From Escherichia phage EC.P3, in the sequence record PQ657771.1: a DNA stretch of 33,378 nt; one strand, 5' to 3'. The translations under genes were made by a program, and so were the position numbers. The first letter of the stretch is position 1; every line of letters starts with the position of its first letter. Below the pieces are notes generated by a model. The model saw nothing but the letters and a program-made list of their open reading frames with translations. It ran no database searches and was not told the DNA's origin. This document shows, in pieces, positions 3,940 through 30,154 of this stretch.

Positions 3940-4033
3940 CTTGTGTTGGTCGCCAGAAAATGAAATTAGGCAGCAAACCACTTATTTGGGATGTGGGGGC
4001 CTTTTTATATCAATCAAACAGAAGGAGCATCCT

Positions 4034-4204
4034 ATGCAACAGTTCGCTATTGCAGGGGCGGCATCGGTTCGCCCTTTCAACCCGATTTTATCGGTACAGC
4101 ATTCACGAAAAAATATTTTAACCGGAGCAGACTTTAAACAACCAAGAATGAAAAGTTTGCTCGAAAAGCTTTGGGATATTTTGAAACAACAAGGCCGTCC
4201 ATGA
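4034..4204 (+). CDS. hypothetical small early protein
   Basis: ATG 4034 with AGGAG 6 nt upstream; 56 aa; first gene after N. Confidence 0.4.
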   Translation: MQQFAIAGAASVRPFNPILSVQHSRKNILTGADFKQPRMKSLLEKLWDILKQQGRP

Positions 4205-5496: not shown

Positions 5497-5962
5497 AATA
5501 GCCAATGAATACGCAAAGCTGATGGATTCAGATTTAGAGCCAGAGATGATTGCTGACACAATAGAAGGCATGGAAGGAGAATTTACCGATAAAATAGAGC
5601 AACTTCTTGCCATTATTAAAAATGAATCTGGTTATGCTGAACGCCTCAAGGACGAGGCAAAGTCGCTGAATGAGCGAGCCGCAGTAATTCAAAATAAGAT
5701 TGACAGCATCAAATCATATATAGCGTCATCGCTTGAAATGGTTGGCAAGAAAAATATTCGAGCAGGTATTCACCAGGTAACAATCCGCAAACCGTCAGAA
5801 ATTGTAGAAATCATCGACTCAAGCGCCATTCCTCCTGAATACGTTGAGTTTGAAACGACAATTAAAGCCGACAAACTGGCAATCAAACACCAACTAAAAG
5901 CAGGAATAAATATCCCCGGCGCTCAACTCAAAGTTGGGAAACCTTCACTTCTTATCAAATAA
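5474..5962 (+). CDS. Gp157-like protein
   Basis: 162-aa coiled-coil protein directly after and overlapping recT, the usual position of Sipho_Gp157-family genes; family assignment from memory. Confidence 0.5.
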   Translation: MPVSKLYEIANEYAKLMDSDLEPEMIADTIEGMEGEFTDKIEQLLAIIKNESGYAERLKDEAKSLNERAAVIQNKIDSIKSYIASSLEMVGKKNIRAGIHQVTIRKPSEIVEIIDSSAIPPEYVEFETTIKADKLAIKHQLKAGINIPGAQLKVGKPSLLIK

Positions 5963-5973
5963 CGGTATCGACT

Positions 5974-6204
5974 ATGAAAAAGACTCCATGGGAGAAATGG
6001 GAAGTCGATTTCTTGCGCGAAGTAGCGGCGACAATGCCAGTTGAAGTTATCGCTGAAAAACTGGAAAGGACTGAAAAAGCAGTAATGGCGAAAGCAACAA
6101 GGATTGGCGCTGACATTGTTAGCCGACTTCGTGGAAGACGCTGGACAAGAGCCGAAGTATCACTTTTCGGTAAGTTCTCCGCAGAAGAAAGTGAACAAGA
6201 TTGA
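5974..6204 (+). CDS. hypothetical protein
   Basis: 76-aa ORF with plausible RBS; no recognised family. Confidence 0.4.
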   Translation: MKKTPWEKWEVDFLREVAATMPVEVIAEKLERTEKAVMAKATRIGADIVSRLRGRRWTRAEVSLFGKFSAEESEQD

Positions 6205-6598
6205 CTATCAGGCACTGCGTGAAAAGGCAGAGAAAGCCGGTGAAGATAAGTGGCAGGCTAAAAAAATAAATGGTGATTTTTTCGTTATTCGTCACGGTAG
6301 CTATACAAGACAGCATGGCTACACATCGTATCAACCCATTGCGGAGATTGATTGTAAGCCAGTCCGGGATTTTGTTGCCAAGGCTAATCCGGCTACCGTG
6401 CTGGAATTACTGGATGAACTGGAAGCAGCAAAAAAGCGCATTGCAGTATGGCTATTGCCGCAAGTTACACCATGCATCTCTACTGTGATTGTCGCCAGTG
6501 TACAAATGGTAAATATCAAACGCCAGACTTCGGTGAATATATCGGTACGTCATGGGCTGGCTGTGCAAAAGAGGCGCGCAAGGATGGCTGGCGAATAA
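6191..6598 (+). CDS. Ead/Ea22-like protein
   Basis: GTG start assumed at 6191; motif NPATVLELLDELEAAKKRIA typical of Ead/Ea22-like proteins; 3' part overlaps ORF 6448..6657 in another frame. Confidence 0.5.
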   Translation: MNKIDYQALREKAEKAGEDKWQAKKINGDFFVIRHGSYTRQHGYTSYQPIAEIDCKPVRDFVAKANPATVLELLDELEAAKKRIAVWLLPQVTPCISTVIVASVQMVNIKRQTSVNISVRHGLAVQKRRARMAGE

Positions 6599-6657
6599 GC
6601 AAAGACAAAACGCGTGCTTTTGCGCCCGGGCATAAAGTTTTGAGGATTAACAAATGA
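6448..6657 (+). CDS. small Cys-rich protein; may be frameshifted C-terminus of the Ea22-like gene
   Basis: MHLYCDCRQCTNGKYQ; overlaps previous ORF by about 150 nt; stop overlaps next start (ATGA). Confidence 0.35.
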   Translation: MAIAASYTMHLYCDCRQCTNGKYQTPDFGEYIGTSWAGCAKEARKDGWRISKDKTRAFAPGHKVLRINK

Positions 6658-7115
6658 CCACTATTACCAAAGAGCGACTGCTGACAATCAAGCAGTGGCG
6701 CGAAACATACGGACCTGGTAGCAACGTTGTACTGCCAGCAGAAGAAGCGGAAGAACTGGCACGAATTGCTCTGGAATCGCTGGAAGCAGAGGCAGTTATG
6801 TTCTGTATATCAGGACAAAATGTAGATTCAGAAGAACATGTATCAACCAGCAAAGCGGTTGTTGATGCCTGGGTTGAAGAATGGAATCAGGTTGACGGAA
6901 GTCCTGGCGAACCACTGTACAAAACTATGCCACTCTACTATCACGCTGCCTTGCCAGCGCCGGTAGTGCCGGAAGAAGCAACTCCGGAAAACGTAGAAAT
7001 GCTCTCTGGCTATGTTTCCACGTACAAATTAACCGATAGCGAGCGCGATATTGCTGCCGAAATATGGAACGCCTGCCGCGCCGCCATGCTAAACAAGGAG
7101 GAGAACAATGGATAA
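6654..7115 (+). CDS. hypothetical acidic protein
   Basis: 153 aa; translationally coupled at both ends. Confidence 0.5.
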   Translation: MTTITKERLLTIKQWRETYGPGSNVVLPAEEAEELARIALESLEAEAVMFCISGQNVDSEEHVSTSKAVVDAWVEEWNQVDGSPGEPLYKTMPLYYHAALPAPVVPEEATPENVEMLSGYVSTYKLTDSERDIAAEIWNACRAAMLNKEENNG

Positions 7116-7806
7116 TCGATATGAAATAGCAGAACAAAATGGCATGAGCCTAGAGTTCGCTGACTGGTTCTTTGATAACAAAAAAGATGGCTGTGGAAAC
7201 GCTTGGTTCGTGATGATGGCTGCCATGTGGGAAGGCTGGAAAGGCCGGGCAGAACCGCCATTTCCGGAAATACAGGCTGATGTCGCGCAAGCAATTGAAA
7301 ATCTCAAGCAGAAGTTAGTGGAATGCAATCGCTATAACTACTGCGCAGATGCAGTAAAGGGCGTAGAGGATGCCTGCCACGCTGCCATGCTTCAGGGTAG
7401 CCAACCTGTAAGCCAAACTTACAAGTTGCCAGTTAATACACCTTGCCAAGATGCGCCAGCCCATATCTGGCTGCAAACAGCTGGAGTATGGCCAGAAGAT
7501 GGCGAGTTAAGCGAATTAACGTGGTGCAGCCACAATCAGCACCATGATGACACGCTATATGTTCGAGCTGACTTGGTAAATGGCAATTCTCCGGTAACTC
7601 CGGATGGCTGGATAAGCTGTAGTGAGCGAATGCCGGAGAAATACGATTTCGATATCTGGGTATTCTCTCCATCCAGAGGCGTTATTGACGGGCTACAGTG
7701 GGATGGCTCGATGTTTACTGATGATGAATATCAGTTCGTTATTCATGACGCCACGCATTGGATGAGAAAAGCATATCCAGCAGAACCGCAGCAGGATGGT
7801 GAATGA
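7108..7806 (+). CDS. DUF551-like domain protein
   Basis: C-terminal WISCSERMPEKYDFDIWVF resembles DUF551, common in enterobacterial prophage early regions. Confidence 0.55.
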   Translation: MDNRYEIAEQNGMSLEFADWFFDNKKDGCGNAWFVMMAAMWEGWKGRAEPPFPEIQADVAQAIENLKQKLVECNRYNYCADAVKGVEDACHAAMLQGSQPVSQTYKLPVNTPCQDAPAHIWLQTAGVWPEDGELSELTWCSHNQHHDDTLYVRADLVNGNSPVTPDGWISCSERMPEKYDFDIWVFSPSRGVIDGLQWDGSMFTDDEYQFVIHDATHWMRKAYPAEPQQDGE

Positions 7807-7932
7807 TGCCGCCAGTTAAAGTTGTGATTATCACTTTGGTGATGATAGTGATTGCGAGAATCATGTCTGGTGAAGTTTGGTGGATATGGTAATGGCTAAG
7901 GCAGCAGCAGAGCGCAACATTGGAGACAAGAA

Positions 7933-10549: not shown

Positions 10550-12355
10550 TTATTTGAATAAATATGGAATTACAATTGCCACAGAAAATGTTACAGGGTT
10601 ACTGTGACCATTTGTTATGTGTACGCGAATTTTATTTGAAGATAACACCTGCAATTGAGTTGTGGCAATAGCAGAAGCTGCACTTCTTGATGTTATCTTA
10701 ACACTTGCATTTACCATGTCTAACTTTTCTGTTGTTGTTATATCTTGATATACATTGACACCTGCTGGAACATCTTGGAATGTTATAGTCTGATTGTAGA
10801 AACCATTAAACAATACTGTTTTCCCATGGGATACACCAACGCCTGATCTTATTGTTGGTAACAGTGTAGAGTTATCAGATGATATAAATGGAAACCCTAA
10901 GTCACCATCTGGTGAGGTGTTATTATTAAAAACATCGACATGGTCAAGATAGGTTGCCCTAACCATGCTTAATGGCCTCTGGTTACTATTCCATGAGTCT
11001 GCTGGAGTAACAATTTTAGGCTTGAACACAAGATCTCGTATACCCCAAGAATCAATTGCTATACATCCGTTTTCAAGCCCTTTAGCATATACAGTGTTAG
11101 TTTCGTCCATGCTGAAAGACGTTGGCGTACCGACCAGTATGCGGGCATAAGCATACTTTTTATAAAATGCATCACCTGGAGTTGCAGCACCGCCCCGCCC
11201 AGTAAGACCGTTATAAATAGATTGGTCATCCATATTTTCAAAGTAACAAAATTTAAACGCTATATTTTGCGGTCGAATAAGTGCAGCAGAATCAGTACCA
11301 ACAACGTAATTCGTCCACCGTTCAAACGCCATGGCAATAAAATTAATCGGACCATTACCAGCAGCGCCTGATATTTTGAAAAATGTATCAAAATCAACAG
11401 ATCTTCCGCCTATAAACTTAATGTTATATGCCCGCTGTATATCTGGGCCATTTTTAATTGCAAGCCAATCTGTATCTATAAATGTTACGTAAAAAGAATT
11501 GATACCTTGACATGGAACGTCAAACCCAAGCCAAGAAGTGCGGTTTGTTTTAATATTACCATTTAATGTCGATATTCCTTTATTCGTACCGATAGTACCG
11601 TTTCCATACTGTGGAATTCCCTTTACAATGACATCAGATAAAAAAACATCCGAATTTTCGCATTGAATAGCATAGTCCCCAGGAACGTCACAATATAATT
11701 GACTTGACTCCGCTCCTATAACCTTATTAGTCATATCGCCAGAATATCCACGAATCTCAAAGCGCCTACCTCCATATACGAGCTTTCGTTTAATTGTAAG
11801 CACTGAACCAGGTGGGATTGTAATAATCAAATGATTTGGATAGGCTGCCATCATTTCTTCAACAGCATCTGAGTCATCAGCCACACCATCGCATGTTGCG
11901 CCATAAGCCTGAGGTGTTACTGCGAACACAGCATTCTGAATTGTTCCTCCTTGTGTTAGGGGTATCATGTCAGCCCCCTTTCCATCTCCAGTCGATGTTA
12001 TTTCCTGGCGAAGCTGATCAGGATCATACTTCAGCACATTGGGAAAATTGAACTGCTGCGAACCATGCGCATCATAAACAGCCATAGAATGGCCTTGCAC
12101 GGTAACGAATTTGGCAATCTGTCCGTTATATACCGGATATCCGGCAGCGTTAATGATTATTGGTTGCGAAACAGGAATGTGAGAACCGTCTTCGTTCTCT
12201 ACATAAACCTGAATCTGGTTTTCAGGATTTACCGGGTCAGTGTCAATTTTACCGATATAAATTTTGCCATTAGCTACGGCTTTAAAAGAACGCGCCATAG
12301 TGAAGAGTTGCGAAGGCATACTCACTACAACATTGGCATTTATTGAATCTGTCAT
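10550..12355 (-). CDS. tailspike protein: P22-type head-binding domain, divergent receptor-binding domain
   Basis: Start moved to ATG 12355 (GGAG 8 nt upstream); [59 protein letters not shown] closely matches the P22 gp9 N-terminus as recalled; remainder diverges. Confidence 0.85.
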
Positions 12356-12413
12356 TTGATTTGCTCCAGATACAAGGAATGGCCGCAGCATGGCTACGGT
12401 GAATTTTGGGCAT

Positions 12414-12436
12414 AAAAAAACCCAGCCGAAGCTGGG
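12414..12436 (-). terminator. rho-independent terminator between ant and tailspike
   Basis: Minus-strand CCCAGC-TTCG-GCTGGG then TTTTTTT. Confidence 0.7.
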
Positions 12437-12455
12437 TCGTTGCGTTGGTTATCTG

Positions 12456-13334
12456 TCAGTAGTTATGTACTGAAGGAGGTAATTCTTTATTCTTAAGTCT
12501 CATCCATGCGGAAAGATTCGTTGGTCCGTCTGGCTCATTGATATCAACATCTCGTGTGTGATTGATTAAAACGTCTCTCGCCATATCGATAATACGGGAG
12601 AACTCATAACCGCAGTCATGACATCTGCCGGAATAGTTCGATTGAATTTGTTTTAGCGCCGGATACAGTTCGCGGAATAATGCCTGTGAGCGGTTGGCAT
12701 AATCCCATAACCATACAAGGCTGTTTGCTTCTTTTGCAGAAAGCTCGTTGGTTTTCTTCTCTTGTTTGCCGATGAATTCACCTTCAAGCACTACCCTGTG
12801 GATGTACTCTACGGCTTGCGGGATTTGTTCAATTGAAAGTTCATCAATGCTGTCAATACCAAAACGCTGATGAACCATATTGTATGCATCGTCATAGCGA
12901 AGTCCTTTCTTTCCTACCAGCATGTTTACTGCATCGCGTAGCGGTGTTCTTTCCTCAACAGTGGTTTTCTTTCCTTTTACATACTCGCCATGTTTGCGAA
13001 TTGAAGGCAGAACTTCTGCTGTTACCCACTTGCGGAATTTGTGCGGGACTGAACCTTTATTGACTGCATCGCGGCAGCGCAGAACCAATGTATACATACC
13101 TGATTCGCTCACAATGCTTAGATTCTGCTCACCACCAAGGGTGTAACTTAAAGTTACTCCCTTTTCATCGTCATCAAGTGCAGTAAGCGCCTTGCGTGAG
13201 TTAGTCAGGGTTAAAGCATCACAAACATCTTTTGCTACAAACCACGGCTCACCGCACTTGTTGATGACGCGGATTTCACTGTCGCCGAATTTGAAGATGG
13301 TGAAATCGTTTTGTGCCTTTGCTATACTTTTCAT
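12456..13334 (-). CDS. ant: antirepressor (BRO-N domain)
   Basis: [33 protein letters not shown] is a BRO-N signature; downstream of arc as in P22 immI; start set to ATG 13334 (AGGAAAT upstream), alternative TTG at 13400. Confidence 0.7.
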
Positions 13335-13396
13335 GTCAATATTTCCTAATCCGATTTGTTGATGCCGAAGCCCTGACTGTTCCCGCAGTTGGGGCT

Positions 13397-13666
13397 TCAA
13401 CGTTTTTCCACTTCATTTTGAATTTGCTTAAGTAGCATATTTGTCTCGTCAAGCCTCTTGTTAATACGGTCAAGGCTTTCTACTAAATCGTTATGTGCAT
13501 GTGATACTTCGTAATTTGAGACTGATTTCTTTTCCTCTATCGTCTTTGTCAATCGTTCCCCTGATTGATACATATTGATTAACGATGTAAAAATCACGAG
13601 CAAGCAAACTACAATGATTGCGCCAGACAAAAATTGTAAAGAACGATCAAGCAATGACACCTTCAT
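13397..13666 (-). CDS. small membrane-anchored coiled-coil protein
   Basis: One N-terminal hydrophobic helix ([19 protein letters not shown]) then heptad-like charged segment; coupled to the arc stop; lies between arc and ant. Confidence 0.5.
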
Positions 13667-13815
13667 ACCGCCACCCCCTCTCTCTTCAGGCTGTCTATCA
13701 GGCGCTTGATAACCTCTGAGTTAAACGACCTGCACTCTTCCTTTGCCTTGCTACCGATAGCATCCTTTAACGACTGCGGCATCCTTACCAAAATCTTACT
13801 TATTTCTTTCTCCAT
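13663..13815 (-). CDS. arc: Arc-like ribbon-helix-helix repressor
   Basis: Start at ATG 13815 with GGAGGG 5 nt upstream; MEKEISKILVRMPQSLKDAIGSKAKEECRSFNSEVIKRLIDSLKREG matches the Arc fold and RS.NSE motif. Confidence 0.75.
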   Translation of the reverse strand: MEKEISKILVRMPQSLKDAIGSKAKEECRSFNSEVIKRLIDSLKREGVAV

Positions 13816-13929
13816 GTTACCCTCCACACAAACAACTCTTTTCGAATACAAAAGATAGCAAAGTGAGTATATCTAGTCAAAATTTTTTTGCATACACTTT
13901 GATATCAAATTGAATACCAAAGGTGTGAT
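13816..13929. promoter_or_regulatory. divergent Pant/Pmnt-like promoter-operator region
   Basis: 114-bp AT-rich spacer between divergent arc-like and mnt-like genes; inverted repeats CAAAGTG (13859..13865) and CACTTTG (13895..13901). Confidence 0.5.
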
Positions 13930-14178
13930 ATGGCAAAGGGTGTGTCAATTTCTCCAACTACGGTAAGAATCCCTGAATCTTTACGCGAGGCTCTTGCTGT
14001 CAGAGCATCAAAAAATGGTCGCTCTGTTAACTCCGAGATCGTCATGATTTTGCAAGCCGCGATTGATGAAGATAGGTCGCCAAAGTCAGTTGAGTCATTT
14101 GCTCAGCAAGAAGCTGACAAATTCAAAGAGGCGCTGCTTGAGACGCTAAAGACCATGTATGGTAAGGATGAAAAATAA
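13930..14178 (+). CDS. mnt: Mnt-like ribbon-helix-helix repressor
   Basis: 82 aa; RIPESLREALAVRASKNGRSVNSEIVMILQAAI and C-terminal KFKEALLETLKTMYGK parallel P22 Mnt, including the tetramerisation tail. Confidence 0.8.
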   Translation: MAKGVSISPTTVRIPESLREALAVRASKNGRSVNSEIVMILQAAIDEDRSPKSVESFAQQEADKFKEALLETLKTMYGKDEK

Positions 14179-14714
14179 TGCTGCACACAATTCATTTCTT
14201 ATGCCCTGTTAACACTGCCACTGTTGGGCAACTTCAGAACCACTGTCTCACCGCATTATCTCAAGGCGCAACTGAATTAAATATCCATATATCAAGTCAG
14301 GGAGGGGAAACTGCTGCTGGCTTTACTGCGTATAACTTTCTTAAGTCACTCCCTGTTACCGTTAGAACTCACAACATAAGCAATGTTGAATCCATAGCTA
14401 ATATCGTTTTCCTGGCTGGCTCAGAACGTTTCGCAAACCCATTATCAAGATTCCTGTTACATCCTCTATTATGGGGCTTTGCCACCCCAGCCGCCGACCA
14501 TGCCAGATTGAGAGAGTACGGGAAATGCCTCGATAACGATCTTGATCGCTTCGTTGAGACGTTCAATATCGACATCGGAACCCATATTAGGTGGGCATCC
14601 CTGATAGCAGACTCGACCATTTTGGATGCTAACAAGGCTCTTGAGCATGGCATAATTAATTCCATAAAAACTGCAAGGCTGGTATCCAATCAGGCAAACT
14701 GGTGGGTTGTTTGA
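14178..14714 (+). CDS. ClpP-like serine peptidase (S14-like fold)
   Basis: Aligns by eye to ClpP: NIHISSQGG vs INSPGG, ESIANIVFLAG vs AASMGAFLLTAG (Ser retained), LLHPLLWG vs MIHQPLGG (His retained), Asp present downstream; start overlaps mnt stop (TAATG). Confidence 0.7.
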   Translation: MLHTIHFLCPVNTATVGQLQNHCLTALSQGATELNIHISSQGGETAAGFTAYNFLKSLPVTVRTHNISNVESIANIVFLAGSERFANPLSRFLLHPLLWGFATPAADHARLREYGKCLDNDLDRFVETFNIDIGTHIRWASLIADSTILDANKALEHGIINSIKTARLVSNQANWWVV

Positions 14715-14740
14715 TGGGTAAATCATGATTACTCCTTATA

Positions 14741-14766
14741 AAAAACCCACCTGACGGTGGGTTTTA
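14741..14766. terminator. bidirectional rho-independent terminator between convergent genes
   Basis: AAAAA-CCCACC-TGAC-GGTGGG-TTTT, exactly between the ClpP-like stop (14714) and the 140-aa gene stop (14767). Confidence 0.7.
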
Positions 14767-15189
14767 TTAGTGCTTGTATAGCTTGAACTCCCTGTCGAGC
14801 CATAAGACATAAAAAGTGGCTCCTATCTTATAACCAACCATAGGTGCCTTAGAGCAAAATCTGAACGCAATGAAATCCACATCTTGAGTAACATGCTTAG
14901 GAATCGGAGCCTTTATCGCGTTTCTGGCAATTTTTTCCGTCCCAAGCCCGTGTTTATCAGATTTTCGTATCTCATCCCATGACATCTGACTTAACCTGAA
15001 CAGCCTATCTGCAAATGCTGCCTTTTCATGCTTTTGGCAGCAATCTAGGCAATACCCCTTTTGTAGGTATCTAAGAGAAAATACAGGCGGACTTTTGTCT
15101 ACATCATGAGATTCGTGATGGATAGAGAGGCCAACAGTAGCAGAGCTCTCTTTATCCCTCTGTTTTATTCTTCCCTTAACTCTAGACAT
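14767..15189 (-). CDS. unrecognised 140-aa protein, candidate toxin/effector partner of the Panacea protein
   Basis: 5 nt downstream of the DUF4065 gene on the same strand; no transmembrane segment; no family recognised. Confidence 0.5.
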   Translation of the reverse strand: MSRVKGRIKQRDKESSATVGLSIHHESHDVDKSPPVFSLRYLQKGYCLDCCQKHEKAAFADRLFRLSQMSWDEIRKSDKHGLGTEKIARNAIKAPIPKHVTQDVDFIAFRFCSKAPMVGYKIGATFYVLWLDREFKLYKH

Positions 15190-15194
15190 ACACG

Positions 15195-15644
15195 TCAGTT
15201 AATTAACGTTTTGAAAAAACCTTTCATAGAATCAAGTGTGATTTCTTGGCTAACCGCACCCTCAATGTAAGCATCTTTCCATGGCTGCTCTTCGTGAGTC
15301 ATATTGCGCAGTTTCCAGGCAGAAAACTGACCATAAACTTTATACACCTCATCCAGCAATTCAATTTCATCTTCACTGAATTTTTTAGCGTCAAAGTTTT
15401 CTGGCGCAGGTAAAGCTCCGTTACCACAGTCCCTATATTTACGATACAATTCAGGAACTACTGGCCCATGCATCCAGGCTTCAATTTTCTCATTAAATAG
15501 CGGTTTACCCAGAAGAACCAGAGAAAACCCTTGGGCATAATACGTCAACTTCTGAATTTTTAGGTTAGAGATAATGTCGCCACTTTCTTCATCGCAATGC
15601 GCCAAGAAGTAGTCGGCGACATCAAAACAAGTGAGCATAAACAT
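15195..15644 (-). CDS. Panacea-domain (DUF4065, GepA/SocA-like) protein, candidate antitoxin
   Basis: CFDVADYFLAHCDEESGDIISNLKIQKLTYYAQGFSLVLLGKPLFNEKIEAWMHGPVVPELY matches the DUF4065 core pattern. Confidence 0.7.
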   Translation of the reverse strand: MFMLTCFDVADYFLAHCDEESGDIISNLKIQKLTYYAQGFSLVLLGKPLFNEKIEAWMHGPVVPELYRKYRDCGNGALPAPENFDAKKFSEDEIELLDEVYKVYGQFSAWKLRNMTHEEQPWKDAYIEGAVSQEITLDSMKGFFKTLIN

Positions 15645-16012
15645 ACCTCCATCTTGATAGCCGCAGCTATGTATACAACTGTGTCAAGTTGCATTTAATA
15701 CCATAACAAAGCTGTCATCAATCCTTCAGAGGCTAACTTACAACCACTTTCTCGACACGTTTAAATCATTACGTTTCACATTTACTGCATTTTCGCCGAA
15801 GTTACCTATAAGGTAATGTCACATTTCCTGCAAGTTTCATGCAATGTTGAAAAGTGAGCTATTCACTTTTCTATGACACTAAACACCAAAAATAGCACTT
15901 TTTGCTAAATCATTCGTCCAAGTTGTGGATGGTTTGTCGTTGACACGTTTTCACACACCACTCCACCAATACAGTATCATCTGGTATCCTGCTCAAAACT
16001 AAGGAGGTTGGT

Positions 16013-16240
16013 GTGAAGCGATGGTTCCTCATAATTACTGTTTTCGCGATCATTTACACTATTTTCCCTGCATTAAAAGCACCAATGCAAATAATTTCGC
16101 TTGCAATAATTGCAATTGGTGCTTTCATTGCAGTAGCCGTACTTGTGTTTAAGGTTTTAAAGTTTTTAGTTTGGCTATCAAAAGATGATGGATGCAAAGT
16201 TCATCAAGAAAAAGAAGGCAAAATAACCAAAGTTGACTAA
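16013..16240 (+). CDS. small two-helix membrane protein
   Basis: GTG start 8 nt after AAGGAGGT; two hydrophobic helices and Lys-rich C-terminus; convergent with gp16. Confidence 0.55.
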   Translation: MKRWFLIITVFAIIYTIFPALKAPMQIISLAIIAIGAFIAVAVLVFKVLKFLVWLSKDDGCKVHQEKEGKITKVD

Positions 16241-18360
16241 CTGTCACTAGCGAGCCATGTAATAATCCCCGTGCGGGCAATGGTTTTTGCTTCATCTGTT
16301 GATAAGGTTTTCTCCCATCTCTTAAATGCCCCAGATTGCATCAGTTTCCTTTCTATTGCGCGTCTCACTTCTGCTCTGTCTACTGGTGCGTTTTGCAGGC
16401 GAAATAGCATTGATTTAAACTCAGGAGAAGACAGTAGAGCATCAGCAGCCTTTATCCTACTTGTTTTCCCTGACATCAATGCTGACGTTATCACCCCTGT
16501 TGCACCTACACCAGGAAGACCAGATAAGCTTGTAATACCTTCCGCCGCAGCAGCTTTTGAGGCTATTCCATAAATTTTTGCGAGACTACCCTTTTCTTTC
16601 AGAAAGTTATTAACTTGCTGATCCACAAGACTACTAGCATACTGCTTACCAGTATTGAGTCTATTCATAGCCTTAGCTGCTTGATAAATCGTATCAAGGC
16701 GCTTTGATGCATCTGTGCCAATAGCATCACGGAGAGCCTTCATATTGGCCCCATTGCGTGACATTCCGTTATACCATTTTACAAATCCATCAACTCCTAA
16801 TTGCTGACCAGGTGATTTGGCATAGCTGGTAAATGCTTTATTCATTGAGGTGAGCGCAACTTCCTGCCGCATATCCTTTGGAATCGACTTCATTAATTGC
16901 CTAAAGTCGCCACCGTTTCCTTTTGCCATATTAACAACAGCACTTTCAACTTTTGGAATTGCTGATTGCTGAAGTTTTCTACCCAAGACGGTTACAGCAT
17001 CATCTTCAATGGATTTTCGTTTTTTTACCAACTCCTTACCAAGCGTCCATAATTCCCCTGCGCCATATTTTTCTGCGACAGCCTGTTGGTCATCTGTTAT
17101 GGCTGCATATAACTTTTTAAGAACACCTGTTTCTTCATCCTTGAATGGACCAGAGCCTTTGCCAATAGCTTGTCCAACCTGCTTTCTAGCGAGATCTAAA
17201 CGCCCATACGTTGGCAAGGTGTTTGGATCAAGTCGGTTCAATGTCCGCTTCATTATTGGAGATAATTCATCAATTCCACCTATATCATCAGCAAAATCCT
17301 CTAAAAAATTCAATGTATTAGTTGCCTCAATCCGGTCTCTTACAGGAACCTTTTCGGCAATTTTGTTGTAGATGTTATCTGACTGATTTTGTAATGATGA
17401 AATGGTTTTATCAAAATTATCTGCAAGCCTGTCAGAAACCAGTTGCTTATCAAGGCTTCCCCCAAATGAAGTTATCATTTCATCAGCTTTTCTTCCTAAT
17501 TCAGTAATAAAACGCTTATGCGCCTCACTAATCTCTGTTCCAGGGAGACTTGCCACTGCATTATCAAGAGCCCTGACAGCAGGATTATTGGAGATCATGC
17601 CTGGAGTGGCATAATTTTCCAGTTCTAGCTCACGAATAGCATTTATCGCGTTAAAATCAGGATTAACTTCATCGGCGAAATCTTGAATAGCTCGTTGGCC
17701 GCCGATAAATTTATTGTCCATTGCGCCAGCAGCTTTCTTTAACGTTGCTTTAGATGATTTACTCCCCATCCCTACGGATGAGCGATAAATATCTCCGGCA
17801 CTATTTTTAATTTTTCCTGCAATCTTCCCAAGAGCTGGACCAACAATCTCTGCTACAGGGCCAGCCACAGCGCCAATAGCAGCTCCAGAAGCAACATCGC
17901 TATTTGTTCCATTGGCTACAATAGCCCCTTCTCCAGCACCAAGCCCTGCGGCGGCAGCCAGCCTTGCCGCCCCTTTCGGAACCTGAGAAATAATCCCACC
18001 ACCACTAACAAATGGTGCTGCTTGTCCAACGAACTCACCAACATCTTGTGCGGTTGATGGTTTTGCCGCTAACTTCTGCTGTAGAGACTGAATTGCGGCT
18101 TGCTCTTCTGGTGTCATATCCTGAAATAGACCAACACCTTTACCAACATCCATCAATCCACTGAGAACGCCATACATAAAACGGTCGAAACCGTTAGCAT
18201 TATTAACAACATTTTCCTGTCTGGAATTTTCCTCTGGTGAAACCAAAGGAGATTGCTGCTGTTCTGGTTGGGCATCAAGCACAAAGCCATCAGGAAGCTG
18301 TGAGTTATCAGGCTGTTCATCCAGAACAAATCCCTCTGGTAAACCTACATTGGTTGCCAT
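16237..18360 (-). CDS. ejection (injection) protein, gp16-like
   Basis: Position after gp20 in the P22 order; Gly/Ala-rich segments; longer than P22 gp16 as recalled. Confidence 0.75.
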
Positions 18361-19694
18361 TGTCCGTTCCTGTAAATAATTTTCTGACCAGTTTTAGGAT
18401 TTTTCGCGGTCATACCTTCTCGAAATGTTTGACCGCCAGATGTTGCTTGTTGTGTCTGTTGTTGCGCAGGCTGCTGAATATCTTCATACAGCTTGGCTTT
18501 TCTGGATTGCAATTGCTTAGTTAGTCCGCTGGGGAGAGAATCTCCATAAGTTGAAAGATAATCATCCATTTGCTGGTTAAACTTTTCGCCTTCAGTATTT
18601 GCCATCAGTTTTGAGGTGTTGATTAAGTCTTGGACTTGCTCATTATTCAGCATCTTGCCGTTAGATAATTGGCTAACATAGTTACCAAGTGTGCCGAATA
18701 TTCCATCAGTGCGTTTTACCTGCACTTGCTCACCTTCGCGTACCACAGATTGCGGATCCAGCGATTTCATATAGTTGAAAATCATTCCCAACTGCGCGGC
18801 TGGAGTGTTGCGCTTCCCAAGGGCTTGTAGGTTGTCAGAAGCACTGCGCATTGCAGAATAATTCTTTGAGAACCCATTAATATCACTATTCAGATCTCGA
18901 ACAAGTTTTGGGTCAATCTTTCCGCTTTCCTGTTGTTTCATCCCTAATTCCTGCAACTTCAGGGCTACGTTATCATTATGCATTTGTGCCCGCTGAGCCC
19001 TGTCTAGTTGAGCGTTTTGGATATTTGCCCATCCTCTCGCGTTCTCCATGTCAGCCTGACGGATGCTTTCATCCAATCGCCCTTTCTCAAGTTGGCGACC
19101 AACCATCTTATCCTGATAATCCAGCATTTTATCCGGACCAACAGCCCCTAGCGTCATAGTGGTCAGCATGTGTGATAGCTGCTCTGGATTCTGGATACCT
19201 GTCTGAATCATCCAGTCAGCATTCGCCCCCACGCGATTTAACCTGTCCTTGTTATCAGTAATGAATTTACTGTAGGCTTCAGGTCCCTGAGAAAGAGCGA
19301 CGTTAGCCCTCATGGCTAAATCGCCCATATCGTTGCGTTGCTGTTCATTAAGACCGGAAAACGCCTGTTGTGCCTGTGCAACAAACGCTGGATTTTCTTG
19401 GGCAAACTTAAATAGTCCCGATGGATCACCAGAAGCCCATGCATCAGCATGAACCTTATTGAACGCACTAATCGCTTTCTGTTGCTGTTCCTGCTTATAA
19501 ATATCAGCAACTCCAGCCAGACCACGTAACGCGGTCAGACCAACGTTATTTGCACCTGAGCGAGCCAGTTCATTGTTTTCGCGGATCAGACCAAGCGTTG
19601 CGTTAATGTCGCTTGCCTTTGGCGCATTCTCATTTTGCGTACCGATGCCAGCCAGAAAACCACCAGAATTAATACCCTGTTGCCACGTAGCCAT
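18345..19694 (-). CDS. ejection protein, gp20-like
   Basis: Synteny between gp7 and gp16; overlaps gp16 start. Confidence 0.8.
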
Positions 19695-19704
19695 TGATTA
19701 CCTC

Positions 19705-20397
19705 TTAAAACAGTGAACCAAGCAGACCAAGACCAGCACCGATACCAGCACCCCACGGAGTTGATAGCTCGAGAGCACTGGCTATGCCACCACCCAAAAG
19801 CGCACCGGATGCAGCACCACTAACACCCTGCTGCAATGCTGACGGTCGGTTGGCGTTTGCCGCCGCCAGCGCCGCGCTTTGCTGTGAAATCTGGCTCATG
19901 TTGTTGGCATATGTTTGCCCGGCGTTTGCCTGTCCCTGAAGAGCGCCAAGACCGATATTTGCCAGGTTGTTGTAATTGTTCATTTGTCCAGATAGCCATT
20001 GCTGACCAAGCGTTGGTGCGATTGTTGCTAACTGATTACTGGTTGCGGTGGAACCCAATCCACCAGTTGCTTCCGCTGCCGCCAGACTCTGATAGCGAGC
20101 CTGACCAGCAAGATCTTTGTACTGCTGAGAGTTGTAATACTGGTTAAGTGCCTGACCTTGCCCCTCCAGAGACGATAAGTTCTCGAGGCTGCCGACATAC
20201 TTATCAGCCAGAGGAGTAAACGGCTTCAGGTTGTTCATGATGGTGTTGAACTGCTGATTTTGCAGGTCTGCGGCATACTTCTGAGCTTCTGCTGCATACT
20301 TTGCGCTTTTATCAGAGCTGCCACCTTTCCCACCCTTTTCAGGGCAATAAGGTTCCTCGCCGCGCAGTTTTCTGCCCAGCTTAAATGCATATAACAT
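19705..20397 (-). CDS. ejection protein, gp7-like
   Basis: 230 aa, Gln/Asn/Gly-rich with C-terminal hydrophobic Gly-rich segment; P22 order. Confidence 0.8.
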   Translation of the reverse strand: MLYAFKLGRKLRGEEPYCPEKGGKGGSSDKSAKYAAEAQKYAADLQNQQFNTIMNNLKPFTPLADKYVGSLENLSSLEGQGQALNQYYNSQQYKDLAGQARYQSLAAAEATGGLGSTATSNQLATIAPTLGQQWLSGQMNNYNNLANIGLGALQGQANAGQTYANNMSQISQQSAALAAANANRPSALQQGVSGAASGALLGGGIASALELSTPWGAGIGAGLGLLGSLF

Positions 20398-20399
20398 GG

Positions 20400-20855
20400 C
20401 TATCTCCCGTGATTCAGGAAGTCGATTAGTTCTTCGCGTGTGGCGCTGTAAAAAGTCACGTCATCCACGCCTTTGAAGTATTTCTTGATGGTTCCGACAC
20501 GCTTAAGGCCAATCATTGCGCAGTAAATCTGCCCGTGGCGGAATTTGCGTGCGGCGAACGATGTGATGCACTGAACGGTGGTGTTAGTCAGAATGTATCG
20601 CCAGAACGCCAGCCCGATTTCCTTGCTGAAGCCACGAACCTCTGGCAGGTACATGGCGTGGCAATCGAATGTCAGCGGCTGAATCTCCTGATAGTAAACA
20701 ATGCCGCCAAACTGACCGTACACGTTAACCTCAAAGTAACGGCATTCAGGCTTGTAGTCGTATCCATCACCGTTGTTGCTTCCGGCAATAATGTCAGGGT
20801 GATTTCCGACTGCTTCGATCAGGTCGATATTTCGCGTTGGTTTGAATGTAATCAT
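20400..20855 (-). CDS. gp14-like head assembly/ejection accessory protein
   Basis: Synteny between tail needle and gp7; coupled stop-start. Confidence 0.65.
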   Translation of the reverse strand: MITFKPTRNIDLIEAVGNHPDIIAGSNNGDGYDYKPECRYFEVNVYGQFGGIVYYQEIQPLTFDCHAMYLPEVRGFSKEIGLAFWRYILTNTTVQCITSFAARKFRHGQIYCAMIGLKRVGTIKKYFKGVDDVTFYSATREELIDFLNHGR

Positions 20856-21556
20856 CAGTCAATCAGCCCATGTAATCTAAGTGCCGTTTCAAGCGCCAGA
20901 ATACGCTGCCGCGCCTGCTGCAAACCTGTAGCGAGAGCCGCGACTTCGGATTGTGTGTACGTAGTGCCGACCGTGTATGACTGGTTAGCGTTGAATGAGC
21001 CAAGAAGAGGTGTACCTGTGGCTGCAGTCCATCCGGTCTGCCTTGCTCCAACGACCTGAATTCCATCAACTGAATATGATGTTTTTACATCCAGCGGTGA
21101 CGCAAGAGACTGCGATTCGGTTACGGTTTTCGATACGTAATCACTCTTAATGCCAGAGACATCGTTTTCTACGTTATCCAGTCTTTGGTCAACAGTGACC
21201 AGATGCGCCTGAATATCGATAACCTCATCCAGCAAGTAATCAACATCGCTACGCAGTACGACTATCTTCCCTTCGGCGGTTGTTAACCTGACCTCAAGGA
21301 GATTTATCGCTTTTGTGTTTGCGGTGATTCTTGCGTCGTGATCTGCCAGTTCGACGTCCTGTTCATCGTTTTTTACCTGAGCATCGTAAGCGCCCTGACC
21401 AGCCTGATTTGCCTTCCCAGCAATTGCACCGACATCAGCTCCCTGATTTATGACATACAGCAGGTAAGACTGGCTGAATATATTGCGTGGCAAAATTGAA
21501 GCATCAAGGCGCGTAGCCTGAACCACGACAGGATCATTCAGTGATGAATCAGCCAT
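20855..21556 (-). CDS. tail needle protein, gp26-like
   Basis: 233 aa; N-terminal [25 protein letters not shown] and C-terminal [33 protein letters not shown] match P22 gp26 as recalled. Confidence 0.9.
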
Positions 21557-22974
21557 TACTCAATCCTTATCTGGCAGCCAGACAGAGTGACTGGTGACTT
21601 CGTAATAACGCGCAATTTGAAGCCGACATTTTTCCTGATGCGCCCAACTCGCTTCCACAAAACGCGTTTGTCGTAAACGAACGGTTCATTCTGCTCAATC
21701 ATCTGCTCACGTCCGTAATTGATGCCGTCAGTGGTTGCAGAGAGAAAAAGGCGGTCGGCGTACTGCGCAACGCCAGTTGACGATTCAACTTCAAGGTCGA
21801 AAACTCTGGCGTTATCCGCTTTGAACAACGGAGTAAACAGAAGGTGTTCCTGTTGCTTGTCGTACTGGCTGCTGATATCGAACTGCAATTTCCCGGTCAC
21901 GGACTCCAGCTTATCGCCGCACGTTATCTGATTGCCTTCGTAAATGAAATCGATAGCGCGGTACACATCGTCATACAGGCCTGTTTTCAGCACACACCAT
22001 TGCGGACCATTGGCGCTTGAAGATGCGTCGTACACGAGTACATGGCGCGGAAGATGGATAATCAGCAACTCATGCGCATCAAACCGCAGCGATTCCATCA
22101 CGCCATCAGCCAGTTCATCAGCAGTGTAGGAGCGTAGTATTTTCTCAATGCTCGCGCTGGCGATTGGTGATACCTGACCGGAGCCGATGATATACACAGA
22201 CGGCGCACCTGTTGCCGGATTGCTGATAAACGCATAGGAATCAGCAAACGGCGTTTTGCAGTAAGTTCCGGCGATGCCTTTTTGCACCATCAGCGATGGC
22301 TGTGCGACATATAAAGCGGCACCAACAGTGGTTGCGCCCGTCAGGGAGAAATATTCAATCGTCGATGAACCAAAGCAGACGATGAAGTCTCGCCATGTTC
22401 CGATGCCGATGATACCGTCCGGCTGCGATTCTGCGCGATATTGTGCGCTGTAACGGTCAGGATGTGATTCGTCTTCAAGGTCAGTGATAAACCATGAATC
22501 AGTTCCGTCTTTTGACCACGCATAACGCCCACGTAAGCGCGTAATGTCGCGAACTGAACCTAACTCATACTGCGTGAATCCGCTGTCCGCAGGCCAGTTT
22601 GAGACGGTTTTAACCGTGCCATCATAGCGATACTCGACCAGTTGACCATTAACGCCTACAGCCTGAGATGTCAGACCATGCGCCATTGATACACGACCAC
22701 TTCCGGCAACATCACCGACTTCGCTTTCGCCTTTGTAGAGCTTTCCACCACACACGCGATAAACAGCATTCTGCGCCATGTTGTACTCGACGCCGCGCGA
22801 TATACCGTTCACATCAGAACGTTTTGCAATGCCCGGGAATGAGCGAAGATATCCGCTGCTGTTCAGGATTTCTTTGGGTGTAGCCAGCATATTCACTGGC
22901 AGATAGTCGATATAGTCGGCATTTCGGAAGTCTTTGCCGACACCTTTCATAAGCGGAAGTTGCTGAATCGGCAT
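21556..22974 (-). CDS. tail hub protein, gp10-like
   Basis: 472 aa, same length and position as P22 gp10. Confidence 0.85.
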
Positions 22975-22983
22975 TTATTCACC

Positions 22984-23445
22984 TCACGTACTCGGATCAT
23001 CTTTCTCGATGTAAAACCGATTCCACGTAAACGCGCTTTTGTTACCACTACCGCGAGGCATGTCATTTCGTCGCTCAAGTGGTGGTATTTTGGTTAAAGC
23101 GATACAGATTGTCTGATATGCACTGTCAGCAGCGGTCAGGAGAGCATCCGACGGCTGAATGACGTTATCCATGCACACTTGCACAGCGAGCTTCAAAGCG
23201 ACGCCATCATTTGCCCATGCAGGGATACCTGAATCATCGTCAGGTAACGGCATGATGCCGTTTTCTGTATCCGCAAACTGATATCCAAGCTCGATACCTT
23301 TCGCCTGCCATGCTGCCATCATGTCTTCAAGGTCATTAATGGCATCTTCAATTGCCTGAGGGTCGGCATCTGTCAACGTGGCATTGGAATACAGCCCGGC
23401 TTTTCGTAAAGCCTTTAGAACGAGATCACCCTTCGTTTTCGCCAT
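22984..23445 (-). CDS. head-to-tail adaptor, gp4-like
   Basis: N-terminal AKTKGDLVLKALRKAGL..ATLTD resembles P22 gp4 as recalled; position after coat. Confidence 0.8.
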   Translation of the reverse strand: MAKTKGDLVLKALRKAGLYSNATLTDADPQAIEDAINDLEDMMAAWQAKGIELGYQFADTENGIMPLPDDDSGIPAWANDGVALKLAVQVCMDNVIQPSDALLTAADSAYQTICIALTKIPPLERRNDMPRGSGNKSAFTWNRFYIEKDDPST

Positions 23446-23614
23446 CTTCTTCCGCCTTAGCCACTTTTTGCTTCGTTGCGGTTTCTTCAGGAGTTTTTAC
23501 CCAACCTTTTTTCAGGTGAGATTTAACTTCTTCGTCATCAACAATGATGTAATCGACAGCAAACTGACCACAGGTGATCATGTTGCCAGGCTTATAGAGC
23601 ATTGTTCGTGCCAT
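23426..23614 (-). CDS. hypothetical small protein between coat and gp4
   Basis: Start moved to ATG 23614 after GGGAGAAG; 62 aa; overlaps gp4 start. Confidence 0.4.
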   Translation of the reverse strand: MARTMLYKPGNMITCGQFAVDYIIVDDEEVKSHLKKGWVKTPEETATKQKVAKAEEDGENEG

Positions 23615-23622
23615 TGTCTTCT

Positions 23623-23648
23623 CCCAATAAAAATGGGGCCGAAGCCCC
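23623..23648 (-). terminator. hairpin plus U-tract right after the coat gene
   Basis: Minus-strand GGGGC-TTCG-GCCCC then ATTTTTATT. Confidence 0.6.
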
Positions 23649-23655
23649 ACCAAAA

Positions 23656-24909
23656 TTACTGCCCGGCAATAACGATGCCCGTATATTCAGGAACAAGTAC
23701 AGAGCAACCGTACAGAGTGGTGAAACGAGCAGTGGTTACGCCTTTGATGTGGTCGAAGGCGTAAGACATGATCAGCGTAGCGCCCTGCTCGGTGGTTGCT
23801 GTCATTACCTGTGGACCCTGACCAGTCGGGAACGCTAGTTTGCCGTACATCAGCTCAACAGAACCATCAGCCCAGAACAGGTTAGCAGGTGCTGCGTTCT
23901 TGTTGAGAATGGTGATTGCTGCTGATTCTGCCGGTTTGGCATCGACGTTTGCATATGGACGACTCGCAACATCGGTATTTTCAACAGGGAGAATCTTTGG
24001 AGAGATTGTTACGGTAGTTCCGCTAACAGCCAGAACACGGAATACCTGCGGTTGCCCGGTGGTATCTTTTGTGATCTGGTGTACGGAATTCACACCGGCA
24101 ATGGTGAACGCATCACCAACCTGCAAGCCAGATGCAGATACCGTAATAGTCCCCTGTCGGTTATCAACTGGCATACCATTTGAATCTTTCGCTTCAACCT
24201 TGTGTTCAGGTTGGCCTGATACTGTCAAGGATTCAGCGCTTCCTTTCGGTAATCGACCAGAAATATCGGTCTTGTAGCTATCAAAGGAAGCAACCGGAGG
24301 GATCTGCGCTTTTTCGTATGCTGTCAGGGTTGCGCCCTGAGCGTAGGCACGGTGACCAAGCTCGCCAGCAAGGTCTTTGTAGTTGAAGGGGTTCCAGAAA
24401 GAGCGACGGTTGATACCCTGCGGTACACCAATCGCCGTCATGGTGGCATCAATACCTGCCGCACAGTTCCACAAATCACGGCCCTGTGTACCTGTGGTTG
24501 AGTCAGACATTGTGATCACGTTAGTAGCACGCTGCGTAACCATGGAAATCAGGTCAGAGTCAATCTGTGCAGCAAGGCGCATACCTGCGGCGCGACCAGC
24601 TTCAGTTTTATGCTCAGGGTCACGCATTTCACGCGCATCCAGAGTGTACAGAATGTTTTTCGGCTCCTTGAACACAGAAGGAACAAGGCGCTGAACCAGT
24701 GCTGTAGGCGTTTTGCTGCTGAGATCGAGGCCTTCCTCAATGTTCATGTGGTAATGCTGCGGACGATACAGAACATCACCTGCTCGCTGCATTGCTGTAT
24801 CACCGGGACGGAATTTTTTAGCGTTACGGGAAACTACGCAGGCGGCCTCAAAGCCTTCAACGTAGTTTTCGAACATGATTTCAAGGTCTTTTGCTAATTG
24901 GTTAGCCAT
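23656..24909 (-). CDS. major capsid (coat) protein
   Basis: 417 aa at the P22 gene 5 position, between scaffold and gp4. Confidence 0.85.
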   Translation of the reverse strand: MANQLAKDLEIMFENYVEGFEAACVVSRNAKKFRPGDTAMQRAGDVLYRPQHYHMNIEEGLDLSSKTPTALVQRLVPSVFKEPKNILYTLDAREMRDPEHKTEAGRAAGMRLAAQIDSDLISMVTQRATNVITMSDSTTGTQGRDLWNCAAGIDATMTAIGVPQGINRRSFWNPFNYKDLAGELGHRAYAQGATLTAYEKAQIPPVASFDSYKTDISGRLPKGSAESLTVSGQPEHKVEAKDSNGMPVDNRQGTITVSASGLQVGDAFTIAGVNSVHQITKDTTGQPQVFRVLAVSGTTVTISPKILPVENTDVASRPYANVDAKPAESAAITILNKNAAPANLFWADGSVELMYGKLAFPTGQGPQVMTATTEQGATLIMSYAFDHIKGVTTARFTTLYGCSVLVPEYTGIVIAGQ

Positions 24910-24927
24910 GCTTAATGCTCCGATAGG

Positions 24928-25821
24928 TTATTTTTTTGCCTTTTTAGCGGCGAAATACGGCGTCCAGTCACCAGTTTCCAGCGCCTTGGCTTTCAATTTG
25001 TCGAGGTTGTTGATTACTGCGCCGTTGCTCCCCTTAACTGTCGGGGTTGTGGCTGCCGTGGTTTTTGCTTTTGGCATGATTCTGGCCTTCGATTCGATAC
25101 GTTCCAGCAGACGACCAATTGCTACGGGGTTGGTAGCTTCTGCCAGTTGCTTGCGCAGTTCAGCGTTGCGGCCGAGTGCCAGAACAACGATTTCCGGCTT
25201 CTCTGACTCAAACAAGATCGCGTTTTGTGTCTCGATGGGGATTTCCTCGAGTACGGCCTGTTCTGCTTCCTGATAGCCAGGAACCTTGAGAGCCTTAACA
25301 CGTTGCTGATATTTGGATAATCGCTCTTGATAGGCAGCCTGAAGCTCCTGCTCCTTCTGCTTGCGAGCCATCTCCTGTTGCTGGTACTTGCCGTTATCCT
25401 CTGCCCACTTAGCCATGCGTTGCTGGTAGATTTCTTCATCGAAACCGATGTCCTCATCATCCAGTTTTGGCATTCGCGGTGGTTGAGTGATTACCGGCTG
25501 CTGCTCGACGGGTTTCTGAGACTGACGCATCAGCTCTTTCAGCTCGCGGTCTTTCTCTTTAATCGTCTTGCGCAGGTGTTTTACCAGTCCATGCTCTGCG
25601 CCATCTTCGCTGGTTGGCGAATCCAGCTTTTCGTCACCAAAGTAGAATTCCTGTTCTGATTCGTCGTCATCAGTTTCAGTAGCTTCCTCTGCATCATTGC
25701 CGGAGGACTCACTGCCATCTTCTGTTTCGACTTCTTCAGCCAGTTCGACATCATCAGGAATCTGCTCTGACGCGTCGGTTTCGATTTCAACTTCTGGTGT
25801 GTTTTCTGCCATCTGGTCCAT
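24928..25821 (-). CDS. scaffolding protein
   Basis: 297 aa, acidic N-terminus, Glu/Lys/Gln-rich helical middle, basic C-terminus; position of P22 gene 8. Confidence 0.75.
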   Translation of the reverse strand: MDQMAENTPEVEIETDASEQIPDDVELAEEVETEDGSESSGNDAEEATETDDDESEQEFYFGDEKLDSPTSEDGAEHGLVKHLRKTIKEKDRELKELMRQSQKPVEQQPVITQPPRMPKLDDEDIGFDEEIYQQRMAKWAEDNGKYQQQEMARKQKEQELQAAYQERLSKYQQRVKALKVPGYQEAEQAVLEEIPIETQNAILFESEKPEIVVLALGRNAELRKQLAEATNPVAIGRLLERIESKARIMPKAKTTAATTPTVKGSNGAVINNLDKLKAKALETGDWTPYFAAKKAKK

Positions 25822-25911
25822 TTGTTACCCCTGTTTACTCGATGTTCAGCCCATCGGAAGGCAATAGGGTGCCAGGCCTCATAAAGACAGCCATTGCACG
25901 TTATGGGTTAA

Positions 25912-30075: not shown

Positions 30076-30154
30076 ATTGATTATTTCCCTTCTGCTTGCT
30101 TATCCCATTCATCGCGGAATTTGGATGGGTTGTCGAAACCTTGAGTTGCCATGT

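Follow-up and report, generated by a model that had tools for sequence, protein, structure and literature searches.

The window analysed here, the whole 33,378-nucleotide stretch of Escherichia phage EC.P3, contains a short open reading frame between a homologue of P22 gene 16 and a Panacea-domain gene, and the locus raises the question of what this small, hydrophobic protein does at such a position. The coding sequence (16013–16240, + strand) has 75 codons with a GTG start and a TAA stop, and a Shine-Dalgarno sequence, AAGGAGGT (16001–16008, +), lies 4 nt 5′ of the GTG. A sequence-only reading of this DNA had proposed the 75-aa ORF, its near-consensus RBS, its convergence with gp16 and an upstream region shared divergently with a Panacea locus, and all of these are borne out. 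The gene-16 homologue (16237–18360, −) encodes a 707-aa ejection protein ending in ...ITWLASDS, and the tetranucleotide CTAA contains the stop codons of both genes, a 4-nt overlap. The divergent neighbour (15195–15644, −) encodes a Panacea-domain protein (PF13274, E 2.2e-24). For the function of the ORF the same reading had offered three candidates: a superinfection-exclusion protein, a small toxin and a holin-like protein.

The Panacea-domain gene is accompanied by a gene for a 140-aa protein (14767–15189, −), which has a PADLOC match to NsnC (E 1.8e-7) and an NCBIfam match to the MAG6450 family at 25 bits (below the threshold of 40). Presumably this protein supplies the toxin of a PanA-type toxin-antitoxin pair. 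The possibility that the 75-aa ORF is itself part of this toxin-antitoxin module was considered and rejected, because the module is absent from most ORF-bearing loci.

The ORF is a genuine gene and more than a chance reading frame, and there are several relevant features. First, intact copies occur in 34 of 5,426 complete E. coli genomes, at 93–100% nucleotide identity, and in 24 viral contigs or loci in IMG/VR, with 21 clusters at 90% identity whose source names are E. coli and Salmonella. Second, 27 loci contain 19 distinct DNA alleles without a single frameshift or premature stop. Third, the 29 variable sites among these 27 loci are distributed over codon positions 1, 2 and 3 as 17, 2 and 10, a pattern that is expected for hydrophobic swaps (I/L/V/F and A/T/S) with the second codon position held. 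The mean pN/pS is about 0.6, being near 1 in the first of two hydrophobic helices and about 0.3 in the second, and the tail is almost invariant. Fourth, there are two alleles that begin at the same start codon position with different signals, one a GTG with AAGGAGGT and the other an ATG with GGGAGG. Finally, three codons are duplicated in frame in one variant.

An exhaustive HMM search of 1.84 billion cluster representatives recovers only the family itself, one distant relative (P0022) and two repetitive false positives. This relative is also 75 aa long and aligns with the ORF gap-free, at 69% nucleotide and 57% amino acid identity; the differences number 33, 22 and 16 at codon positions 3, 1 and 2 respectively, and there are 17 synonymous codon changes. 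Both hydrophobic segments are retained, and identity amounts to 20 of 28 positions over residues 48–75 and 23 of 47 over the remainder. The family has been catalogued previously as phrog_7294, function unknown (a full-length match at E 3e-49, residues 1–75 against profile positions 1–75 of 75), and the ant moron and SieA are likewise known. In E. coli prophages the same ORF carries the RefSeq label 'hypothetical protein', and the GenBank record of Escherichia phage E212 has no annotation between the Panacea-domain gene and gene 16, so that the ORF is unannotated there; it goes unmentioned in the E212 paper, and a full-text literature search with the RefSeq accessions and the PHROG identifier found no paper. 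Searches with the 75-aa protein return only an insignificant DUF3754 match in Pfam (E 0.083), no match in NCBIfam and, in PADLOC, an insignificant 4TM effector (E 0.052).

The DNA around the ORF is 100% identical to that of E212 (MZ043897), a P22-like Lederbergvirus, in a single block from 14158 to 31968 of the window. In P22, gene 16 is followed by the convergent sieA, then by the immI region (mnt, arc, sar and ant) and the tailspike gene, and the window keeps this gene order: gene 16 and the homologues of gene 20 (phrog_917) and gene 7 (phrog_598) lie on the − strand, and beyond the ORF come the Panacea pair, a ClpP-like gene, mnt, arc, the sar RNA, ant and the tailspike gene. SieA proteins are recognised in part by their location between homologues of genes 16 and 9 (PMC10883804), which is where the ORF lies, and the ORF occupies the sieA slot, convergent with gene 16. 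The name 'ant moron' was given to this region, where genetic flux is described as rapid (Villafane et al., PMC2629481). Late transcription is thought to cross it to reach the tailspike gene (PMC2629481), and the ORF is therefore antisense inside the late operon. The ORF has the attributes by which morons are recognised, namely alternative cargos in the same slot, a conserved leader and atypical GC content; its 34.6% GC, compared with 38.9% in the 368-bp intergenic region upstream and 46.5% in the window, is typical of morons.

Several other features of the surrounding DNA can be recorded here. The sar antisense RNA (13336–13402, +; Rfam RF00262, 64 bits, E 3.3e-11) is situated between arc and ant as in P22 immI, and a 89-aa ORF in the same interval (13397–13666, −) has an N-terminal hydrophobic segment, a coiled-coil-like C-terminal part and only weak, sub-threshold DUF matches. 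The ClpP-like protease gene (14178–14714, +; PF00574, E 4e-12) comes immediately after mnt, its start codon overlapping the mnt stop codon, and another ClpP-family gene, likewise 178 aa long, lies just upstream of P0022 in its locus L130 (1785–2321). The window is collinear with MZ043897 but is without several internal segments, among them record positions 5507–7931 (O, P), 10750–11670 (Q) and 11842–12954 (holin, lysin and the beginning of Rz); its Rz/ninH junction, near 31966–32136, is contiguous in none of the 5,426 complete E. coli genomes; the source of the window is therefore an E212 relative or a deletion derivative without the lysis cassette. The immI DNA spans 1.5 kb in the window (12628–14157), compared with 313 bp in E212.

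Directly upstream of the GTG is a conserved sieA-type leader, TGGTATCCTGCTCAAAACTAAGGAGGTTGGT (15982–16012, +), which is also found in front of P22 sieA and of at least 12 unrelated cassette genes. The leader with its GTG (15982–16015) is unique in the window and is found in 0 of 100 shuffles. In P22, TGGTATCCTGCACAAAACTAAGGAGGTTGGT-GTG stands directly before the SieA coding sequence (MSDSMSY...), and its single difference from window positions 15982–16012 falls at one of the leader's two variable positions; the window and P22 sequences part immediately 3′ of the GTG. In the upstream direction, only the last 33 nt of the window's own DNA are common with P22, and beyond them is the Panacea-type intergenic region. 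Of the AT-rich region that had been described as the gene's own, the last 31–33 nt do travel with the gene in other contexts, but the rest belongs only to the Panacea-type context. In the context typified by E. coli 55989, 83 of 85 upstream bases match the putative PsieA region of P22, and this context is present in 19 of 38 fetched GTG-allele loci, approximately half (with some contigs counted twice). A single chromosomal copy of sieA with 85 bp upstream and 22 bp downstream confers exclusion (Leavitt et al. 2024, PMC10883804), and expression of this insert was attributed to putative PsieA as its likely promoter (PMC10883804); many prophages therefore carry a codon-exact replacement of sieA behind that region.

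The promoter in the window is less readily assigned, and a scan of the + strand for consensus sigma-70 sites finds none. The TTGACA pointed out by the sequence-only reading (15941–15946, +) is present, and in AT-rich DNA (38.9% GC), but there is no −10 hexamer at 16–18 nt; it was rejected as a −35 and is probably not that of the promoter, since the closest −10-like hexamers follow at 23 and 28 nt. A looser scan gives a −10-like TATCAT (15975–15980, +) with a −35 candidate TTCACA (15950–15955) across a 19-nt spacer, as well as an extended −10-like element, TGgTATCCT (15982–15990, +), inside the leader. The sieA promoter annotation in the P22 record comprises the 31 nt TTGGTACGTTTCCAATGTTAACTTTTTTCAT, which would read as TTGGTA-19 nt-TTTCAT with an equal spacer length and with the −10 abutting GGTATCC; the TATCAT of the window lies 2 nt further from the leader than does the TTTCAT of this annotated putative PsieA. 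Across contexts the hexamer immediately 5′ of the leader is either TATCAT or TTTCAT, which suggests that the −10 element moves together with the leader and that the −35 region is the variable part. This leader is missing from the ATG allele, which begins 28 nt after its upstream gene as the last gene of an mnt operon; this position implies co-transcription with the lysogeny-maintenance repressor Mnt and expression from the prophage.

Two further observations concern the DNA upstream of these alleles. A 186-aa protein encoded upstream of the ATG allele was considered as a possible type B SieA and rejected, since it is a tail-anchored coiled-coil protein without the SieA motif. In loci with the P22-type context (L004, 5605–5970, −; L007, ~3832–4200) a divergent 121-aa ORF (phrog_1365) starts 30 nt from the GTG, and putative PsieA is therefore inside the phrog_1365 coding sequence; the complement of the ATG of this ORF gives the first T of TGgTATCCT, its own promoter would fall within the cassette gene, and the P22 RefSeq record has no gene annotated at this place.

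The sieA slot behaves as a cassette site. The intergenic region shared with the Panacea gene (15645–15981, part of the 368 bp) is context-specific, and the full 368 bp is nearly invariant across six loci whose cargos differ, and among loci with four different downstream genes, with the switch between cargos falling just after GTG AAG. It contains no conserved ORF and could hold regulatory sites or a small RNA. In two of the six loci (L013 and L016) the 756 bp upstream, comprising the intergenic region and the Panacea gene, is only about 83% identical overall. Scanning IMG/VR with the 33-nt leader yields at least 139 complete ORFs that start at the leader's GTG, and these belong to at least 12 unrelated families. 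Among the matches listed, the most frequent cargos are c129 (32 loci), c109a (29) and c62 (17), followed by the 75-aa gene (14) and SieA type A (11); c109b (8), c116 (7), c149 and c140 (5 each), c99 and c106 (4 each) and a 68-aa protein with the PGAP label YobH family (3) are rarer. An N-terminal hydrophobic segment, either a transmembrane segment or a signal peptide, is present in 11 of these 12 families among the matches listed, the exception being c140, and the slot therefore specialises in envelope proteins. Because one upstream context is found with varied cargos and one cargo with varied upstream contexts, the leader acts as a recombination joint. In one viral contig (L070) the leader occurs twice at a distance of about 1.8 kb, at 2340–2372 with a 129-aa cargo and at 4105–4137 with a 149-aa cargo, so that the slot can hold tandem cassettes.

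This variety of cargo also bears on the possibility that the 75-aa protein is a moron with some other envelope function, altering host physiology in the lysogen (for example through a transporter, a sensor kinase or an envelope stress pathway) and not phage entry. The many unrelated envelope proteins of the slot, including the YobH-family-labelled protein and several secreted soluble proteins, would suit such a role, as would the description of ant moron variants as functionally non-identical (PMC2629481) and the lack of a significant defence-family match in PADLOC. However, of the genes at this exact position and leader only one has been characterised, and its product is an exclusion protein; the data suggest no host partner, and the co-inheritance with one type of ejection protein described below, which extends even to the relative at 57% identity, better fits a phage-directed role. 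We regard a host-directed function as possible but rather unlikely.

The association with gene 16 is close. The 75-aa gene is always beside one 707-aa gene-16 type that is at least 99% identical (27/27, 16/16 and 14/14 loci), and the gp16 tail reads ...ITWLVSDS in one locus. The 3′ end of this gene 16 is present in 45 complete E. coli genomes, in 34 of which it is accompanied by the 75-aa gene; in the other 11 the homology breaks 14 nt into gene 16, and all three of those examined carry a YobH-like gene. A similar arrangement applies across the slot, with each cargo nearly confined to one gp16 C-terminal class and each class having several cargos. The distant relative P0022 overlaps the stop codon of a gene for a 78%-identical gp16 and adjoins one for a 72%-identical gp20, and the gene pair has therefore been co-inherited for a long time. 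Such co-inheritance fits a functional tie to gp16, and equally fits plain physical linkage in which no recombination site intervenes.

If the tie were functional, it might take the form of self-protection, in which an 'immunity' protein fitted to the channel former that the phage itself encodes in gene 16 would protect the inner membrane of the producing or lysogenic cell against gp16, on the model of the immunity proteins for pore-forming colicins, with exclusion as a by-product. The arrangement is suggestive, with a small membrane-protein gene that is independently expressed and runs convergently towards the 3′ end of the gene for the channel former, and with cargo families almost confined to one gp16 C-terminal class each; yet there are several alternative cargos for each class, and linkage alone can explain the association. 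Moreover, 44 of 66 sequenced P22-like phages are without sieA, and two SieA types have the same target range against divergent gp16 proteins (PMC10883804). We consider self-protection decidedly improbable. A broader scheme can be drawn for the slot as a whole, and although it is speculative and on balance unlikely it deserves mention: the fixed 33-nt leader, with its −10-like element, RBS and GTG, would be the left recombination joint of a cassette system with a dozen or more unrelated envelope genes, each locked to a gp16 C-terminal type, and the 75-aa protein would be its minimal member, a type-matched 'immunity' protein that neutralises the gp16 channel at the inner membrane as colicin immunity proteins do, with specificity conferred through its conserved cytoplasmic tail.

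The architecture of the protein is simple. Hydropathy gives two hydrophobic segments at about residues 4–21 and 26–46, in agreement with the two helices proposed previously; these correspond to predicted transmembrane helix 1 (16022–16075, +) and predicted transmembrane helix 2 (16088–16150, +), which are separated by the proline-flanked turn P19-ALKAP-24, and the GRAVY of the whole protein is 0.98. They are followed by a conserved C-terminal region, xxLKFLxxLSKxDxCKVxQExxGKITKVD (16151–16237, +), which is defined by comparison with P0022 and predicted to be cytoplasmic. The last 21 residues had been called a Lys-rich tail, and there are indeed five lysines, but because these are offset by three Asp and two Glu (with one His) the net charge is near zero and the tail is mixed-charge and not basic. 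By the positive-inside rule K2, R3, K47, K50 and K57 would be cytoplasmic and the loop with K22 periplasmic, and the predicted topology is an N-in/C-in hairpin with the conserved tail in the cytoplasm. AlphaFold2, with a 16-sequence alignment, instead gives one continuous helix over residues 2–70 (pLDDT 75, pTM 0.36). This model was set aside because a hydrophobic span of about 50 residues cannot form a single transmembrane helix, and it does not settle the topology.

Class II holins and pinholins such as phage 21 S are proteins of about 70 aa with two transmembrane helices and a charged C terminus, and the proposal of a holin-like protein, which would extend to an antiholin or a pinholin-like lysis protein, rests on this likeness in size, helices and tail; the window also is without the holin and lysin genes of the E212 record. 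The genetic setting is different. Class II holins lie in a lysis cassette, with an endolysin partner and a dual start, and the 75-aa gene is outside the lysis cassette with no adjacent endolysin and no dual-start motif. It is on the strand opposite the late operon, between gene 16 and the immI region, and starts at the GTG used by a prophage-expressed gene, and E212, which is identical over the region, has its own holin, lysin and Rz. Among holin family profiles Pfam has no match, and the only PHROG match, to the holin/antiholin family phrog_14607, is insignificant (E 0.083, with 0 stretches passing). The holin proposal finds no footing here, and a lysis role is extremely improbable.

The small size and pronounced hydrophobicity of the hairpin would also be compatible with a membrane-active abortive-infection effector or toxin that oligomerises and depolarises the membrane on infection or over-production, so killing the cell. 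The non-significant matches to the 4TM defence effector (PADLOC E 0.052) and to the holin/antiholin PHROG (E 0.083) point in this direction, and a Panacea toxin-antitoxin pair adjoins the gene in the window; most loci, however, are without that pair, there is no partner gene, and the gene is intact in 34 of the 34 complete genomes carrying it. An unregulated toxin would be hard to carry because of the near-consensus RBS and, in many loci, the putative PsieA region of P22. The searches for regulatory features give little: an antisense promoter-like site at the 3′ end of the ORF (GTGACA-16 nt-TATTTT, 16247→16220, −) is one found against 2.0 expected, a predicted hairpin pairing the RBS with codons 16–19 is not significant (z −1.76, with 13 of 200 shuffles folding as well), and an Rfam search has no match in the ORF region. 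The earlier suggestion of a small toxin is left with no positive evidence, there being no significant antisense promoter and the gene being stably carried in many prophages, in some behind the putative PsieA region of P22 and in others at the end of an mnt operon. We consider a toxin quite unlikely.

We favor the interpretation, to which we assign a probability of roughly 0.45, that the 75-aa protein is expressed from the prophage and excludes phages at the inner membrane, as an analogue of SieA without homology to it. A moron gene of a P22-like (Lederbergvirus) phage would encode a 75-residue inner-membrane hairpin with the N terminus inside, two transmembrane helices linked by a brief periplasmic turn, and a conserved C-terminal stretch of some 28 residues in the cytoplasm. 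The prophage would make this protein at a low constitutive level, like sieA, and at the inner membrane it would keep incoming P22-like phages from assembling the complete gp16/gp20 conduit for DNA delivery. Superinfection exclusion had been suggested from the sequence at the outset, and the position in the sieA slot beside gene 16, the sieA leader and the codon-for-codon replacement at the GTG all agree with it, as do the PsieA-like upstream DNA of many loci, the place of the ATG allele in an mnt operon, the bias of the slot towards envelope proteins, the steady pairing with one gp16 type, the low GC content and an architecture like that of T4 Imm, but homology to SieA does not: BLASTP against SieA gives no similarity (E 3.5), the protein has no match to phrog_7745 (which P22 SieA matches at E 9e-109), and the SieA motif FxRYPxEAxxFNK is absent from it. 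Other considerations also count against an exclusion role. A common slot and leader do not prove a common function, the cargo c140 is without an N-terminal hydrophobic segment and another cargo carries a YobH-family label, and plain physical linkage might account for the pairing with one gp16 type; the window itself, moreover, has no more than 33 nt of the P22 upstream region and no consensus promoter. Nonetheless, the place where it is encoded, the leader before it, its predicted location and its neighbour make the 75-aa protein the best candidate for the SieA role in the gene-16 lineage that is without sieA in the sample.

Two thirds of sequenced P22-like phages are without sieA (PMC10883804), and the same start codon and leader are filled by unrelated small envelope proteins. 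In E. coli the occupant usually seen with one gene-16 lineage is the 75-aa hairpin, which is also present in Salmonella. Both the sharing of the sieA leader and start codon by a dozen unrelated envelope-protein genes and the hairpin's place as the usual occupant for that lineage appear to be undescribed in searchable papers. If the protein does exclude phages, it would be among the smallest known injection blockers and, with its two helices, a tractable tool for studying the passage of the gp16/gp20 conduit through the inner membrane, and the common leader would be a handle for finding more exclusion genes in prophages; if it does not, it is one more moron of unknown function.

Several known systems can be set beside the 75-aa protein. 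HK97 gp15, a moron-encoded inner-membrane exclusion protein (Cumby et al. 2012, cited in PMC10883804), reportedly blocks DNA entry by related phages, and by description it resembles the present case as a moron within a virion-gene operon, but it belongs to an unrelated phage type, a siphovirus, and has another target. The immunity proteins for pore-forming colicins are plasmid-borne and have three or four transmembrane helices. The analogy with them lies in the genetic arrangement, that of a small inner-membrane protein encoded convergently with the 3′ end of a channel-former gene, independently expressed and paired by variant, although the pairing with gp16 type seen here may be mere linkage. 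T4 Imm, an 83-aa protein that confers immunity to superinfection by blocking DNA transfer across the inner membrane, shares the layout, with two hydrophobic stretches and then a charged tail of some 20 residues; this likeness is of architecture only, with no local alignment to the 75-aa protein at E ≤ 100, and Imm differs in being the product of an early gene of a lytic phage, and not of a prophage moron, as well as in phage type and injection machinery. P22 SieA is the remaining comparison. The SieA proteins (types A–C) have 160–205 aa and three or four transmembrane segments, compared with 75 aa and two here (PMC10883804), and the two families are separate PHROGs (7745 and 7294 respectively). 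They share, however, the slot between genes 16 and 9, the leader of about 33 nt and the position of the GTG, and in many loci the 85-bp upstream region as well (83/85). Both are low-GC morons that encode predicted inner-membrane proteins with a conserved C-terminal region that is probably cytoplasmic, as is predicted for the conserved motif of SieA.
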